DNA of 37,876 nt. Source: Octopus sinensis. Taxonomy: Eukaryota. Position numbers and translations under genes: made by a program. The stretch covers positions 1-37,876 of the forward strand of contig NW_021835883.1 of NCBI RefSeq assembly GCF_006345805.1, given 5' to 3'. Every line of letters begins with the position of its first letter. Within the stretch, counting starts at the first letter, position 1. The notes beneath the pieces were generated by a model. The model made no database searches and was not told the origin of the DNA. It saw only the letters and a program-made list of their open reading frames with translations. Shown one piece after another: positions 6,661-37,712 of this stretch.

Positions 6661-6917
6661 GCTCGTGCTCTTACAGCTTGGCTCCATGTCACATCTGATT
6701 AACCAGATCTAAATATTAACCAGATCTAAATATTTGGCGAACTAATAATTCTGACTATTCCATATAATTATCAGACCTCAGTATTCTGTGGACTGGCGCA
6801 ATATCCACATTTAAAGTGGGATAAATATTACACTTCTGTATTAATATGTTTTCATTCGCAAATGATAATAACGTGTCTGTATATACATACATATATATAT
6901 GTATCTATGTATATATA

Positions 6918-7128
6918 TAACGGGAAGCTTTATGAAAATAAACAAAAGACGAAGGCAGGTGGAATACAAACAAACAATTGTATTAGTATGGCGCTCAGTA
7001 ATATAAATAAAACAAGTCTTTTACGTTTCGAGCCTACGCTCTTCAACAGAAAGATACACAGAAAAGAAACACGGAGTGAAACAAGGAGAGAAAAAATGCG
7101 TGCAGAAGCTAGCGAATCAACATGGCGA

Positions 7129-10463: not shown

Positions 10464-10528
<65 letters not shown>

Positions 10529-10590
10529 TACATATATATTATGTGTGTACATATATATATATATATCTATATATATATATATGTGTGTAC

Positions 10591-11736
10591 ATGGGCGCTC
10601 AACGCTGAGCCAGATACTATGCCTGCGCAGACTTATTGAAGAATCAAAAGCATTTAATCGCGATCTTGCAATGGTATTTATAGACTTTTCTAAAGCGTTC
10701 GATTCTGTAGATAGGTGCAAGATGTTTGAAATCCTTAAGCTCTATGGGATACCAGACAAAATTATTTCTGCCTCTACACAGATACGTCTTCAACCATCTT
10801 AACCCCTGATGGAGAAACATCATCTTTCTCGATCGAGGCCGGAATACTGCAGGGAGACACACTCGCCCCATTTCTTTTCATCATTGTTGTTGATTATGTG
10901 CTTTGAAAGGGCTTTGAAATAAAACCAAGAAGAAGTTCCAGACACCCAGCTGAGTACTTGACAGACACTGACTTTGCTGACGACATCGCTCTTATCAGTG
11001 ATTCTCTCTCCAATGCCCAGTCTCTTTTACAATCTCTTGAACAAGCCCCAAATTGTGTAGGTCTTTACCTTAATGAGACCAAAACTGAATACATAAACAA
11101 GTGCCTGTCCAACAGTGATTGCATCATCCACACTCTCAACAGTGCACCTTTAAATATGGTTTCTGATTATAAATATCTTGGGTCATACATATCATCATCT
11201 GGAAAAGACTTTCTAACTAGAAAGGGTATGGCCTGGTCAGCCTGTAATGACATGCATAAGATCTGGTCATCAAATCTGAGTAGAGACTTCAAACTTGAAA
11301 TATTCAAAACCACAGTCGAACCAATCCTACTATATGGCTCAGAAACCTGGACGTTATCAAAGAAGCTTGAGAGGCGGTTGGATGGAACCTACACTCGCCT
11401 CCTTATGAGAGCTCAAAATCTCTCGTGGAGGCGCCATCCAACTAAAATGCAAATATATGGGAAATTACCACCTGTGTCATCTCTTGTGAAGGGTAGGAGA
11501 GTCCAGTTTGCTGGACATTGTTGTAGAGCTGAAAAAGAAGTAATTTCTACTCTTCTCCTCCGGAAGCCATCTACTCGCAACACCAGAGGGCGCCCACTCT
11601 CCTACCCTGATGTAATCTCCAGGGATACAGGCATCCAGCAACAGGACCTCCGTAATGCTATGATGGACCGTGAAGTCTGGCGCAACATGGTAAATTCCAT
11701 TGTCTCGACCACGGTCGAACAATGATGATGATGATG
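10591..11736 (+). mobile_element. 5'-truncated RTE-clade LINE, reverse transcriptase and C-terminus, disrupted
   Basis: [80 protein letters not shown] across frames with a frameshift and a stop. (TGA)n tail at 11723-11736. Inserted in (TA)n. Confidence 0.93.
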
Positions 11737-15067: not shown

Positions 15068-15206
15068 TGAGATTAGGTTTCTTGAGTAAATTTTCCACGT
15101 AATCTTGAACTATCAAATATTCTGATTACTTCCTCGGCTTTCGCTGACTGTGTTTGTTCAGTTATTTTACGATATATGAACAGAAATACAAATGAATCTA
15201 ATATCT

Positions 15207-15614
15207 TATTTCTTTATTGCCCACAAGGGGGCTAAACATAAGGGAAGAAACAAGGACAGACAAAAGGATTAAGTCGATTACATCGATCCCAGTGCGTAAC
15301 TGGTACTTGATTTATCGACCCCGTGAAGATGAAAGGCAAAGTCGACCTTGGCGGAATTTTAACCCAGAACGTAACGGCAGATGAAATACCTTCTTCTTTA
15401 CTACCCACAAGGGGCTAAACACAGAGAGGACACACAAGTACAGACAAACGGATTAAGTCGATTATATCGACCCCAGTGCGTAACTGATACTTATTTAATC
15501 GACCCCGAAAGGATGAAGGGCAAAGTCGACCTCGGCGGAATTTGAACTCTGGACGTAACGGCAGATGAAATACCGGTGAACAATTCGCCCGTCGTGCTAA
15601 CGTTCTTGCCAGCT
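15207..15614 (-). mobile_element. Head-to-tail dimer of SINE family A (15207-15390, 15393-15614)
   Basis: Two consecutive reverse-complement matches to 27842-28071. The left copy lacks the first ~50 nt of the head. Confidence 0.85.
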
Positions 15615-16363: not shown

Positions 16364-17230
16364 CTACACCGGATTAATGAAACTAACAAAATGGCGTGAA
16401 TCTTATTTATAAATTCAGCAAAACGATTTATCGGCTGATGCGGGCTGATAAGTGGAAACTGATATAAAACATCATGTACAGTGAACAATATGAATTAAAA
16501 CGGTAACTTCCATACTATTTCTTCATCCAGCAGACAATGGATCGCATTTGCAAGACAACAACATTCCCAGTTTCGATCGCGAAAATATTAATCCTTGTTT
16601 GTGTCTAGTCAAGAAGAACAAGTTTTCCATTTAGAAGAATGTACAATCATCGAATTCATTACATTAATGAAAGGAGACTTTAAAACACCCGGTGTTTCAA
16701 CATTATTTTGTCTCCTCATACACAGATACAGCGGATCACTGAGTCTAACAAGAATTAGTAGCTCATGTTTATAAATTTGGTGAACATATTATCTGCTGGG
16801 GCTGTTGATGCGTAGCAGTCGTTAATAAATCGCCGGTGAACATCATGAATCAATATGGTGATTTACATATTTATAAATATATTATAAAATATGTCGGCCA
16901 TTTTTATTTTCTGGGAGTAGAAGATAATTTAAATGAAATTTAGCTGCTATTTCTGCCGATCAATTATTCATGTGAAATCATTCAGACTATATTCATTGCT
17001 CTGTTACGTCCAATTAGAATGAATAATTGATATGTGGCAAAGGTTTTTTATGTCCTTGTTTACTTCTTATTCGCCACATATTCCCATTAATTCACAAAAT
17101 CTTTCTGCAAATTAAGTAGTATCTTTCATTAATAGAAATTACGATGAAAGCAGGCAGTTGACTACAGTTTTGGGGAAAATTTTGACCAACAGTTCTGAAA
17201 ATTTATTGTCACTACATTTTAGATAATAAT

Positions 17231-21352: not shown

Positions 21353-22060
21353 TTATGAGAAGTAATGTATATTGGCCAATAATGGACCGTGACATTGAAG
21401 AACTAGTGGAAGCATGCGGAGGTTGTGCCCTAGCTGAAAACGCACCAAGCAGTAAATAGCAACCGTGGCCTAAAGGAAAGCAGATATTCCATGGTCCACA
21501 CTGCATGTTGATTACGCAGGTTCACTAAAAAGGTTCATATTACTTTGTTTTAGTGTACAGTTTACAAAATGACCTGAACTGCATAAGTGAAAAAATCCTA
21601 CGCCTGCGATTACAGTAATTATTTTACACGAACTGGTCGCCAGATATGGTTTTCCTGATATCATTGTGTCTGATAATGGAACTCAGATATTTCAGACGGG
21701 TTCAAAGAACTTTGTAAAACTGTTCGTTATCGAACATGTCACTACGCCGTCGTATAATCCTAGGCCAAATGCACAAGCAGAGTGTTTTCTTGATACTTTT
21801 AAGTGCGTTTTCAAAAAAAGGTGAAGGATGAAGTAATGGATGATCTAGTACTTCAACAATTTTTAAGAGCGTACCGAGTAACACCTAATCCGAATAACCC
21901 GCCTGGAATATCACCCGCAGAATTGATTTTTTCCAGAAAGATCAGATCAGTCTTTGATAAGCGGATACAGAGAGGAAATAGGAAAAAAGGCGAACAACAA
22001 AGCTACTTCAAAACTCTTCAAGACAGGTGATAAAGTATTTTTTAAAAATCGTATAGATAT
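21352..22060 (+). mobile_element. Decayed Ty3/Gypsy LTR-retrotransposon integrase remnant
   Basis: LMRSNVYWPIMDRDIEELVEACGGC (zinc-finger CxxC), PWSTLHVDYAG, RYGFPDIIVSDNGTQ, HVTTPSYNPRPNAQAE, FLRAYRVTP..GISPAELIFSRKIRS. Multiple stops and frameshifts; no LTRs seen. Confidence 0.9.
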
Positions 22061-22649: not shown

Positions 22650-22780
22650 TTGCAGAAGGCCTGCGGTTTTGAGGGAGGGGAAGTCGATTACATCAACCCC
22701 AGTGCTCAACTGGTATTTATTTTACGTCACTTAATATTACGAAGGACAAAATCGACCTAGGCGAAATTTGAACTCAGAAA
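22650..22780 (-). mobile_element. Decayed SINE family A variant (alternative tail)
   Basis: aagtcgattacatcaaccccagtgc..actggta..aaatcgacct..aatttgaactcagaa matches the family A core. Confidence 0.6.
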
Positions 22781-27550: not shown

Positions 27551-27841
27551 GATACTTACATCACACCCACCTCTCCAAATCTCTTTCTCCCATTCTTCCT
27601 CTCTCTATTTCATATTCTTGTTTTTACCTAATGAAGCGAAACAATATACGAAACAATACACGGAACCTACGGTCAAACACGGTCCAGCAGTCAGATTGTA
27701 TTTCCTATTTAAAATCTACATTTACGATTGCCTTTTCCAGCCTCTCTCTCCATTCACAAACATTATGCAGTGGAATTTGAACAAGATGTATACACTATCT
27801 TTGGTAGTAAGTCGGGTAAACATTCAGGTTGAAGCCATTAA

Positions 27842-28071
27842 GGCGGCGAGCTGGGAGAAGCGTTAGCACGCCGAGCGAAATGCTTTGCGGTATTTCGCCT
27901 GCCGTTACGTTGTGAGTTCAAATTCCGCCGAGGTCGACTTTGCCTTTCATCCTTTTGGGGTCGATAAATTAAGCACCAGTTACGCATTGGGGTCGATGTA
28001 ATCGACTTAATACCTATGTCTCTCCTTGTTTGTCCCCTCTATGTTTAGCCCCTTGTGGGTAATAAAGAAAT
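27842..28071 (+). mobile_element. Full-length tRNA-derived SINE family A with 16-bp TSD
   Basis: B-box GAGTTCAAATTCC. Central gtcgactttgcctttcatccttttggggtcgataaattaagcaccag resembles the MetaSINE core (from memory). TSD aggttgaagcca(t/c)taa at 27826-27841 and 28072-28087. Confidence 0.9.
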
Positions 28072-28308
28072 AGGTTGAAGCCACTAAATTCCTGTGTAAA
28101 TAAATGTTCCAAAATATATATTTCTTTCTTTTGTTTTGTTTGATTATTGTTTCGTTTGGTTTTTGTTTCGTTTCTTTTCTTTTTTACAATACTTTATGCT
28201 ATTTCGTTACATTCACATTTATGTTTATATTACAAAGTTTGTCATACCATCTGAAATCCATCTCCCTTATTCTTCAGATGCCAAATAATTTGTATGTCTT
28301 TATATATC

Positions 28309-28539
28309 TATTTCTTTACTACCCACAAGGGGCTAAACACAGAGAGGACAAACAAGGAGAGACAAACGGATTAAGTCGATTATATCGACTCCAGTGCGTA
28401 ACTGGTACTTATTTAATCGACCCCGGAAGGATGAAAGGCAAAGTCGACCTCGGCGGAATTTGAACTCAGAACGTAACGGCAGACAAAATACCGCTAAGCA
28501 TTTCGCCCAGCGTGCTAAGGTTTCTGCGAGCTCACCGCC
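28309..28539 (-). mobile_element. Full-length SINE family A with probable 16-bp TSD
   Basis: Reverse complement of 27842-28071. Flanks tatgtctttatatatc (28293-28308) and tatgtatttctatatc (28541-28556). Confidence 0.9.
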
Positions 28540-28569
28540 TTATGTATTTCTATATCGTTAAGCCTAGGT

Positions 28570-28710
28570 TTGTAGTAAGATGTTTCCCCCGACCACGTGA
28601 TTCCGGATTAAGTCCCACTCTGTATAACTGTCTTCTACTATAGTCTTAGGGCGACCAAAAGCTTTGAGAGTGGATTTGATAAGCCGAGGCTTATGGGCGC
28701 TTGTCGTGTA
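28570..28710 (+). mobile_element. Decayed SINE family B 5' half
   Basis: agtcccact..tgtcttctactatagtcttagggcgaccaaaagctttgagagtggatttg. Confidence 0.6.
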
Positions 28711-28730
28711 TATATACATATATATATATA

Positions 28731-28891
28731 GGGAGAGTTTACGAAAAAAAATAAAATAAAATACGAAAACAGGTGGTGTACAAAACAAACAGATGTATTA
28801 GTATAACGCTCAGGAATAGAAAAAGTATTTTACTTTTCGAGCCTACGCTCTTCTACAGAAAGGGACACAGAAAAAACAAGGAGAGAAAAAA
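28731..28891 (-). mobile_element. Short Penelope-like element copy 2, truncated by the palindrome; hammerhead-like motif at 28826-28863
   Basis: Homologous to 6918-7095. Minus strand reads UUU CUGUAGA A GAGC GUAG GCUC GAAA AG UA AAA. Confidence 0.6.
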
Positions 28892-29032
28892 GTATATATA
28901 TATATTAATAAAAGGAATTCCAACCTTGTCTGATTTTCACGTTTTATTTACAATCTTATAATGATATAATATAAGATAATATAATATAATAAAATGAAAT
29001 TAAATAATAGAATGTTAAATGTTCATTCTGAT

Positions 29033-29077
29033 TGAACTAGTACTTTCATGCATTAAATTATGCAATCTTCAGGTTCA
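29033..29077 (-). ncRNA. Type I minimal hammerhead ribozyme, left arm
   Basis: Minus strand: UGAAC CUGAAGA U UGCAU AAUUUA AUGCA U GAAA GUAC UA GUUCA. Intact CUGANGA/GAAA/UH core. Confidence 0.7.
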
Positions 29078-29154
29078 TGTAGTAGTGGCGACAGTCATGC
29101 TTCACAATTTTTGACTGTCAAAAATTGTGAAGCATGACTGTCACCACTACTACA

Positions 29155-29199
29155 TGAACCTGAAGATTGCAGAATTTAATGCATGAAAGTACTAGTTCA
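29155..29199 (+). ncRNA. Type I minimal hammerhead ribozyme, right arm
   Basis: UGAAC CUGAAGA U UGCA GAAUUUAA UGCA U GAAA GUAC UA GUUCA: stem I UGAAC/GUUCA, stem II UGCA/UGCA, palindromic stem III AGUACU. Predicted cleavage after A29194. Confidence 0.7.
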
Positions 29200-29364
29200 A
29201 TCAGAATGAACATGTAACATTCTATTACTTTATTTTATTTTATTTTATTATATTATATTATATTATATTATATTATATTATATTATATCATTATAAGATT
29301 GTAAATAAAACGTGAAAGTCAGACAAGGTTGGAATTCCTTTTATTAATATATATATATACTTTT

Positions 29365-30199
29365 TTCTTCAGAGATTTGGTTCAAAACGACAGACGAAAT
29401 TCCATGTAACATGATTGCCACATTGGAAAATCCTGATTTAAAGTACCTGCTTAGGAGCGCGAGCGTTAACTATTCAAGTACATATCATAAAAGAACAAAC
29501 TTATAACGGACAAAATAATTAAGTAAAAGATAATCCACAACTGTCAAAGCGTTTCTATAATATCTCCATTAATATTAATTCAAATGCGTTTTGGTCGAAA
29601 ACAATCGCTGGCCATTTAATAAAGTATCAGGGACTTACTATTCTATATATTTGCCTATGTATGTTCAATAAAAAAACATATTTCTTGTATATCAACTACT
29701 TATTTATTTATATGCCATACTTGTCCGATATTAATAATGACTCAAAGAAAAAATATATAAATTATATATAATGATAATATAGTATCATATTAATACAATG
29801 ATGAAATATAATAACATTTTCTATTTATTTAAAGTTATTTCTATACAGGTATTTTCAGGGTAATTAATAAATAATGGTCCTCTAAAACTAAGTAAGACTC
29901 TGATACTTTATTAAATGGACAGTGATTGCTTTCGACTTAAATGCATTATTGGAAATATACAGAAATATTATTGGAGGCATAGATATTATTATAAATATTA
30001 TTGGAGATATACAGAAACAATTTTTGACAGATTTAAGCATTTTCTTCGTTATAATTTTGTTCTTTTATGGTATTTGTTATGTATTTGAATGATTAACGTT
30101 CACGCACCTAAACATCGGTATTTTCAATCACTATTTTGCAACCTGGCAGTTCTTTTACATGGAATTTTGTTTGTCTTTTTGAACCAAAACCCTGAAGAG
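29365..30199. repeat. Old, diverged inverted repeat: arms ~29365-29640 and ~29890-30199, AT-rich spacer
   Basis: tcttcagagatttggttcaaaacgacagacgaaattccatgtaa vs ttacatggaattttgtttgtctttttgaaccaaaaccctgaaga; ccatttaataaagtatcagggacttact vs agtaagactctgatactttattaaatgg. Confidence 0.85.
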
Positions 30200-30266
30200 A
30201 CTTGTATACATGAATATGAATTGCTTATTAATCAAATAATCTATATAAGTTGAAACACATTTTTGG
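30184..30266 (+). ncRNA. Degenerate hammerhead-like motif with a long stem II
   Basis: CCAAAA cc CUGAAGA GACUUGUAUA..UAUAUAAGUU GAAA CACAU UUUUGG. CACAT could be CpG-decayed CGCGT. The stem I junction is imperfect. Confidence 0.4.
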
Positions 30267-30469
30267 CTTTTATTGGCTTTTTAATAATTTTTAATGTCAT
30301 CTTACCTATATTATATTTATATTATATTATATTATATTATAATATAAATAAATAGTATATATTATATTTATAGTATATTATATTATGATATAAATAAATT
30401 GTTAGTTTGTCCATTGAATTGCTCTATGCTATTTAATGTTTGTAATTTATATATATATATATATATATC

Positions 30470-31430: not shown

Positions 31431-31625
31431 ATATATAATATATATATATATACATATATACGACAGGTTCATTTACGTTTCCGTCTAACAAATCCACTCA
31501 CAAGGCTTTGTTCGGCCCGAGGATATAGTTGAAGACACTTGCTAAATGTGCCACGCTGTGGGACTGAACCCGTAACTATACGGTTGGTAAGCAAGCTACT
31601 TACAACACAGCCACTCATACGCCTA
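31158..31625 (-). mobile_element. Full-length SINE family B
   Basis: Collinear with 7970-8450 and with the reverse complement of 33736-33960. Confidence 0.85.
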
Positions 31626-33735: not shown

Positions 33736-33960
33736 GGCGCAGGAGTGGCTGTCTGGTAAGTAGCTTGCTTACCAATCACATGTTTCCCGTTTCAGTCTCT
33801 CTGTGTGGCACATTGAGCAGGTGTCTTCTTCTATAGACTCGATCTGGCCACAGCCTTGTGAGTGGATATGGTAGACGGAAACTGAAAGAAGCCCGTTGTA
33901 TATATATATATATATGGTTGCGCGTGTCTGTTTGGCCACACAACATGGCTTGTCAATCGC
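33736..33960 (+). mobile_element. SINE family B 5' part
   Basis: ggcgcaggagTGGCTGTCTGGtaagtagcttgcttaccaatcac.. head, then gccttgtgagtggatatggtagacggaaactgaaagaagcccg. Confidence 0.8.
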
Positions 33961-37348: not shown

Positions 37349-37495
37349 GGCGCATGGTTGGCTTTGTGGTAAGAAGCTTGCTTCCCAACCACATGTTCCC
37401 TGGTAAGTCGTACTCCGTGGCTCCTCGGGTAGGTGTCTTCTACTAAAGGCTTGTCAGACCAAATCCTTGTGAATGGATTTGGTAGACAGAAACTT
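37349..37495 (+). mobile_element. Decayed SINE family B 5' half
   Basis: tggtaagaagcttgcttcccaaccacatg..gtgtcttctact..ccttgtgaatggatttggtagacagaaact. Confidence 0.7.
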
Positions 37496-37497
37496 AA

Positions 37498-37712
37498 GGC
37501 GGTGAGCTGGCAGAAACGTTAGCACGCCGGGCGAAGTGCTTAGCGGTATTTCGTCTGCCGTTACGTTCTGAGTTCAAATTCCGCCGATGTCGACTTTGCC
37601 TTTCGTCATTTCGGGGTCGATAAATAAAGTACCAGTCATGCACTGGGGCTGATCTAAGCGAATGGCTACCTCCACAAAAATTTCGGGCCTTGTACCTAGA
37701 GTAGAAAAGAAG
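37498..37712 (+). mobile_element. SINE family A, alternative-tail subfamily, abutting or inserted into the family B copy
   Basis: Head and core nearly identical to 27842-27995; the tail differs (..aaaatttcgggccttgtacctagagtagaaaaga). Confidence 0.85.

Follow-up and report, generated by a model that had tools for sequence, protein, structure and literature searches.

Insertions of endonuclease-bearing (EN+) Penelope-like elements (PLEs) have been described in some detail in Craig et al., 2021 (PMC8557442): in the parts of that paper drawn on here, insertions frequently have an inverted 5'-truncated copy next to their 5' end, (TA)n is a common target and how the inverted repeats form is left to future work. 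Palindromes at head-to-head junctions of rotifer Penelope elements, interpreted as self-priming, are reported in the part used of Arkhipova et al., 2013 (PMC3846280); a literature search on PLE fold-back priming returned this paper and otherwise unrelated work, and we make no claim that the mechanism is unpublished. PLE ribozymes are covered by Cervera and De la Pena, 2014 (PMC4209133), the passages used here describing minimal hammerheads whose stem I is short and whose stem III is palindromic and which cleave weakly, as dimers, as well as dual minimal hammerheads on opposite strands, 100-700 bp apart, in Schistosoma. The head-to-head arrangement with opposite-strand hammerheads is an already published pattern. 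For the Anolis PLE Poseidon PAc, Frangieh et al., 2024 (PMC11167929, in part) found that the hammerhead relies on protein to cleave and that in vitro insertion does not require this cleavage. PLEs are also abundant in Octopus vulgaris, making up 6.83% of the genome, some of them recently active, according to the portion used of PMC13282606.

The stretch of Octopus sinensis DNA analysed here (37,876 nt, the window) contains a 485-bp palindrome (28884..29368) in which a single unpaired T at 29116 separates two arms, each with a hammerhead motif, and this palindrome is a real feature of the sequence. We propose that it is probably the end of a 5'-truncated PLE pseudo-LTR (pLTR), which fold-back priming doubled into a head-to-head pair while the element inserted at a TA site. 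The element type is likely the stub of an endonuclease-bearing PLE insertion, consisting of the ~220-bp 3' end of a pLTR with a minimal hammerhead motif. The features are as follows:

6911-7115, minus strand: family B repeat between TA runs, with a variant hammerhead whose core is at 7049
28731..28891, minus strand: left flank, a truncated family B repeat, 80% like 6935-7085, its own hammerhead broken in stem III
28884..28892: 9 bp of left flank, flank-derived and outside family A, with an exact reverse complement beyond the right TA run
28893..29115, sense on the minus strand: left arm (family A), 3' end of a PLE-like pLTR with a 13-nt TA run at its end
28943-28948, minus strand: mirror of the putative AATAAA signal
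around 28961-28991: left-arm counterpart of the (TATTA)n tract, shorter and interrupted
29033..29077, minus strand: mirror hammerhead motif with a 5-bp stem II, predicted cut after 29038
29090..29119, plus strand: 8-bp stem with a 14-nt loop (29090-29097 with 29112-29119) over the centre, candidate trace of fold-back priming
29116: centre, a lone unpaired T
29117..29359, plus strand: right arm, which repeats the left one in inverted orientation; (TATTA)n tract longer than on the left, TA run of 13 nt
29155..29199, plus strand: minimal type I hammerhead motif with a 4-bp stem II on a U-U base, predicted cut after A29194
29246..29285, plus strand: (TATTA)8 tract of the right arm
29304..29309, plus strand: AATAAA, putative signal
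29369..30330, no strand assigned: right flank (element C), an older inverted repeat

Alignment of the reverse complement of 28884-29115 with 29117-29368 gives 232 paired columns, 6 substitutions and 20 gap columns, the gaps falling into three indels (1, 4 and 15 nt), every one within an AT-rich tract; 26 perfect pairs flank the central T on each side. One of the 6 substitutions is a CpG-type change, and the arms also differ in microsatellite length. With the outer 9 columns left out, the substitution divergence of the arms is 2.7% (6/223 columns; 95% interval 1.0-5.9%). The window holds no other non-microsatellite palindrome with arms of at least 12 nt and a spacer of 0-4 nt, nor a second copy of the family A arm. 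Given that the outermost 9 bp of each arm lie beyond the TA runs, in the flanking repeats, the element proper spans about 28893-29359. An earlier note on this DNA had described near-identical arms around T 29116, each with a full type I hammerhead core 39 nt from the centre and, outward of it, (TATTA)n, AATAAA and a (TA)n end; the alignment bears out the arms, and the whole layout could be located on the plus and minus strands, with a TA run of 13 nt at each end. Its extent of 28884..29368 holds for the palindrome and has to be cut back for the element, the outer 9 bp coming from the flank. No target-site duplication other than TA was found, the only candidates being AT-rich direct matches of 6-7 nt inside the arms; TA runs can mask a duplication. 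A one-sided tail of 30-40 bp, a feature that comparison with other copies would bring out, was not found at the locus either.

Both motifs start 39 nt from the palindrome centre, and on both arms the CUGANGA core, the GAAA and a U-H cleavage site are set between stems I, II and III. On the plus strand, stem I pairs 29155-29159 with 29195-29199 (5 bp), the core CUGAAGA occupies 29160-29166, U 29167 faces U 29184 at the base of stem II, stem II itself has 4 bp (29168-29171/29180-29183) and the GAAA (29185-29188) runs into the self-complementary stem III hexamer (29188-29193). Stems I and II are predicted to pair with P of at least 0.9, save for the outermost stem I pair (about 0.5). A relaxed hammerhead pattern matches 3 times in the real window and never in 200 block-shuffled windows, both strands included. 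The folding energy of the single motifs is no better than that of shuffles (z 0.14 and -0.25), so that energy alone gives no support for a hammerhead and it is the core pattern that does. Closing stem III in the monomer costs ~5 kcal/mol in the folding predictions, in which two sense strands reach their minimum free energy as the active dimer, with stem III formed over 6 bp (-17.0 vs -10.8 kcal/mol for two monomers). A dimer made up of two sense copies is predicted to be the only form in which the ribozyme sequence can cleave. Dimer-cleaving PLE hammerheads are reportedly the subject of a paper in RNA Biology.

The earlier note had also proposed a check against the Rfam hammerhead models, which came out negative: there were no matches in the window at the gathering score, no hammerhead among the 18 matches around the locus at E up to 10, and no match to the hammerhead motif alone. 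The miss probably reflects the unclosed stem III. The weak matches include 16 microRNA-precursor models on or near the hairpin, far below gathering, which we set aside as generic hairpin matches. Both the consensus G10.1-C11.1 pair and the extra base after position 9 are absent, bearing in mind that the consensus is not absolute. The U-U opposition must be older than the arm doubling because it is common to both arms. As a caveat, U-U had been noticed before; the mispair is there, and what falls is the weight given to it, since natural and active precedents exist. Perreault et al., 2011 (PMC3088659), in the part used, report natural U10.1-U11.1 motifs and cite U-U as the best-tolerated mispair, and in the corresponding part of Cervera and de la Pena, 2020 (PMC7229834), monomers of the axolotl type I motif HHR_Amex2, which has U-U, reached 22% cleavage in one hour, the dimer cleaving better.

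What the palindrome would do to its ribozymes can be approached by folding. The sequence 28921-29330 folds into a hairpin with 91-94% of bases paired, including perfect duplex runs of 26, 28, 41, 40 and 27 bp, and forcing the hammerhead stems within this hairpin is predicted to cost 67-68 kcal/mol. The earlier reading was right that a transcript of either strand holds a sense ribozyme and its own antisense copy; to this an order can be added, because the arms stand head-to-head and a transcript from either side always makes the antisense copy before the sense ribozyme. Simulated nascent chains indeed pair with the upstream antisense arm as they grow. The same reading had self-cleavage competing with a ~240-bp hairpin, which the folding does not support: with the antisense copy made first and the hairpin favoured by 67-68 kcal/mol, cleavage would be shut off. 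Dimerisation within one RNA is precluded as well, since the motifs lie on opposite strands. A free ribozyme would be expected only in a transcript that starts within ~40 nt of the centre, and at this locus the motif is predicted to be a silent passenger, any read-through RNA folding into the long hairpin. If the locus is transcribed, the perfect duplex runs would be suitable substrates for ADAR or Dicer.

The repeats that make up the two flanks are older and carry hammerhead motifs of their own; these, together with the centre stem-loop, are the new details at this locus. On the left, the family B repeat has its fuller counterpart at 6911-7115, where the variant hammerhead has its A6 replaced by U and one additional A, stem II being G-C-rich and 4 bp long and stem III a 4-nt palindrome; a weak partial match to family B also occurs at 16847-16894, and Rfam gave no match to the family B motif. 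On the right, element C consists of two arms (~29369-29639 and 29891-30221) of 70% identity around a ~250-nt spacer. At 30192 (+), its right arm carries a hammerhead-like motif that has decayed; stem II of this motif has 10 bp, and a (TATTA)n tract comes after it (motifs of this type, with a stem II of at least 9 bp, occurred in 0 of 200 shuffles), and its left arm ends just past the core heptamer. Element C is likely an older head-to-head PLE fold-back. When the two are anchored on the core heptamer, the young TA run is in register with the TA-containing hexamer of the element C stem II (in the intact arm, 30204-30209). The TA site that received the young element was therefore probably located where two older PLE-like remnants meet. 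Elsewhere in this region, a SINE-like 235-bp repeat forms two inverted copies (27839-28073 and 28308-28542, 234 bp apart, 89%), with further copies at 15201-15614, 22681-22779 and 37492-37661, and a short dispersed repeat ending in a TA run is found at 28626-28730, 31438-31540, 33822-33915 and 37434-37484.

The 9 bp beyond the TA runs deserve attention of their own. They are exact reverse complements of each other, and even 8/9 is reached by none of the other 188 TA-run flank pairs, a comparison in which 20/262 flanks passed the microsatellite filter. On the left side they are part of family B (17 nt are identical in the other B copy). Their origin may be a copy-back overshoot, a later quasi-palindrome correction or a short palindrome left by the B insertion, and as these three are inseparable we make no claim about which arm came first. 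A reading in which the 9 bp prove the left arm to be the earlier one was dropped, given that the register with element C allows a short palindrome from before the insertion.

The centre itself suggests how the priming happened. An 8-bp centre stem arises by chance in 875/200000 shuffles (0.4%), and the centre 9-mer (29112-29120) has one further occurrence in the whole window, at 29135. As DNA, a 4-bp version of the stem is marginal (-1.0 kcal/mol) and the 8-bp version reaches -6.2; as minus-strand RNA the stem reaches -10.7. Two readings may account for this. The parent RNA may itself contain the centre stem-loop, in which reverse transcription stopped; alternatively, the DNA end may have mis-primed on a 4-bp hairpin, been extended by four bases and then primed again at the closest GAC. 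Each would lead to the 1-nt centre. We infer the fold-back mechanism from this one copy, and it would run as follows: a PLE protein from elsewhere would have nicked the TA site and reverse-transcribed a pLTR from its 3' end; the stem-loop would have halted synthesis ~39 nt beyond the ribozyme; the 3' end of the DNA would have self-primed, first on the hairpin with 4 bp and a 14-nt loop or on a native mini-palindrome; and a second priming on the nearest GAC/GTC would have let the arm be copied back, leaving the 1-nt centre. Such a copy would go no further, short of being transcribed and mobilised in trans.

A parent element was sought in the window and beyond. No PLE reverse transcriptase (RT) or GIY-YIG remnant was found among the screened frames of the window (146/574), so the PLE link is one of motif and layout; in a truncated stub an RT/GIY-YIG ORF is not expected. 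The earlier suggestion of a head-to-head pLTR duplication with a dimer-type minimal hammerhead therefore agrees with the anatomy and with the published PLE patterns, the ORF link being the part not found among the screened frames of the window. Other protein traces are weak RT matches (RVT_1, DUF6451) at 10524-11722 (+), from a broken LINE-type remnant that we take to be RTE-like, and a weak integrase core (rve) match at 21591-21821 (+) with E 0.0005, below the curated cut-off; one further protein-domain match (E 0.009) was taken as noise. Promoter and tRNA scans gave nothing useful.

Relatives were looked for in several collections. The motif scan of the viral collection returned 5 loci, none with both stems and none a family A copy; a hammerhead-like string in the one that looked closest (L003, 1501-1534) falls within a phage ORF of 895 aa encoded on the opposite strand and was treated as chance. 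In the metagenome collection the strict motif pattern gave 0 matches and the relaxed one 117 loci from 19/64 parts of the collection; none of 118 matches in 122 loci had stems I and II both of at least 4 bp, leaving chance matches only. Among public sequencing runs, 20/24 rows share part of 28880-29700, a stretch that includes a flank repeat, and 4 rows (2 studies, 3 organism labels) share 0.55-0.57 of 82 words, which is word sharing and carries no junction information, and one of these runs may come from the source itself; no RNA runs are among the listed runs that share part of this stretch. The family A, B and C motifs had 0 matches in paper supplements, where long cells were covered in part and one PMC4209133 file was excluded. 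The repeats look octopus-like, although a stretch of flanking SINE had 0 matches in the full text of papers.

Could the whole palindrome be the mobile unit, as in a non-autonomous fold-back family with many copies sharing the same centre? Both ends stop at equal 13-nt TA runs, the arms are merely 2.7% apart, and the outer 9 bp could be an older short palindrome at the B/C junction, in which case family A would have inserted cleanly at TA. Against this, there is no second copy in 37.9 kb, the read-through RNA would be a long hairpin with a locked ribozyme and hence a poor template, and published PLE insertions yield such palindromes copy by copy (PMC8557442 and PMC3846280, in the parts used); we regard such a family as unlikely. 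The inverted identity that crosses the TA run and 9 bp of flank might instead point to local copying without reverse transcriptase, in which a solo pLTR inserted first and was later duplicated in inverted orientation when replication or repair switched template at the stem-loop. A stem-loop does lie at the switch point, and had an older solo copy undergone such an event, the resulting sequence would look much like this one. Yet fold-back during insertion is expected to overshoot in the same way, and the head-to-head structure is a PLE family trait (PMC8557442 and PMC3846280, again in part) that recurs in the adjoining element C. A template switch is thus an improbable origin of the palindrome.

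Palindromes with no spacer are known to arise as artefacts of long-read sequencing and of amplification, and a fold-back chimeric read could in principle have doubled a solo pLTR in the library or assembly. Such a chimera would mirror the flank, whereas the flanks here differ beyond 9 bp; the TA site is in register within the element C hammerhead stem; and the arms differ by 6 substitutions, one of them CpG-type, and in microsatellite length. The earlier note had already held the arm differences against a simple read-foldback artefact, an argument that the unrelated flanks reinforce, and we consider an artefact very unlikely. The TA ends would also fit a Tc1/mariner MITE, so that one may think of a DNA-transposon MITE with long TIRs, or else of a non-LTR retrozyme monomer, with the hammerhead incidental or used for circle formation. 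A MITE gives no reason for a complete ribozyme, an AATAAA and a 1-nt spacer. Retrozymes do carry type I hammerheads, one of them with U-U (PMC7229834, in the part used), but their defining feature, at least two head-to-tail units with same-strand hammerheads, is absent at the locus. We view these last two origins, taken together, as the least probable of all.

If a truncated pLTR end doubled by fold-back priming is the right explanation, its 1-nt centre on a stem-loop is a clean fossil of the event and makes a specific, checkable prediction about the parent sequence that lies upstream of this centre. Three repeats with hammerheads nested together would further speak of repeated use of one TA site, and the U-U motif is a small addition to the variety of PLE hammerheads. 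As one locus without parent, copies or expression, it leaves current knowledge unchanged; the centre stem-loop and the U-U motif are features that merit genome-wide attention. A bolder idea, doubtful though not negligible, is that a stem-loop 5' of the ribozyme acts as a built-in stop-and-fold signal: it would give reverse transcription a fixed end point and yield repeated spacer-less palindromes, each insertion locking its own U-U hammerhead through the antisense copy and becoming a source of long dsRNA for editing or small-RNA silencing of the family.

How does the locus compare with known systems? The relatives considered here are known from the portions of the sources cited, and the comparison extends as far as these. 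HHR_Amex2 and metazoan non-LTR retrozymes (PMC7229834; Li et al., 2026, preprint 10.64898/2026.07.22.740005) share with the locus a type I hammerhead and a U-U stem II base, and better cleavage as a dimer is a feature of HHR_Amex2 (PMC7229834), the dimer form at the locus being a prediction. However, retrozymes form head-to-tail tandem arrays on one strand, in contrast to the head-to-head arms with motifs on opposite strands seen here. Poseidon PAc (PMC11167929) has a similar AT-rich target and a hammerhead in the pLTR; its ORF starts inside the hammerhead, whereas the motif at the locus is followed by stop-rich AT tracts. The minimal hammerheads of PLEs (PMC4209133) differ from the locus in the base of stem II, which is U-U here with no extra base between positions 9 and 10.1; counted by eye in 44 PLE rows from part of Fig. 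S3, this pair is G-C in 34, G-U in 6, A-U in 3, U-A in 1 and U-U in 0. They resemble it in the CUGANGA core, the GAAA, the palindromic stem III, the 5-bp stem I and the AU-rich 3' side, and the shrimp row of the same figure has a similar 6-nt stem III and CUA site. With respect to EN+ PLE insertions (PMC8557442, PMC3846280), there are two differences: (i), no ORF, second direct pLTR, tail or discrete target-site duplication is seen at the locus; (ii), its junction is a 1-nt centre on an 8-bp stem-loop. Judged by its sequence, the locus nevertheless appears to work like a truncated EN+ PLE insertion, formal membership lacking the ORF link and the clade not being assignable: the inverted 5'-truncated copy at the 5' end, a trait of these insertions, is present, and the two have in common head-to-head inverted arms, a palindromic junction, 5' truncation, a TA-rich target and a hammerhead in the terminal repeat.
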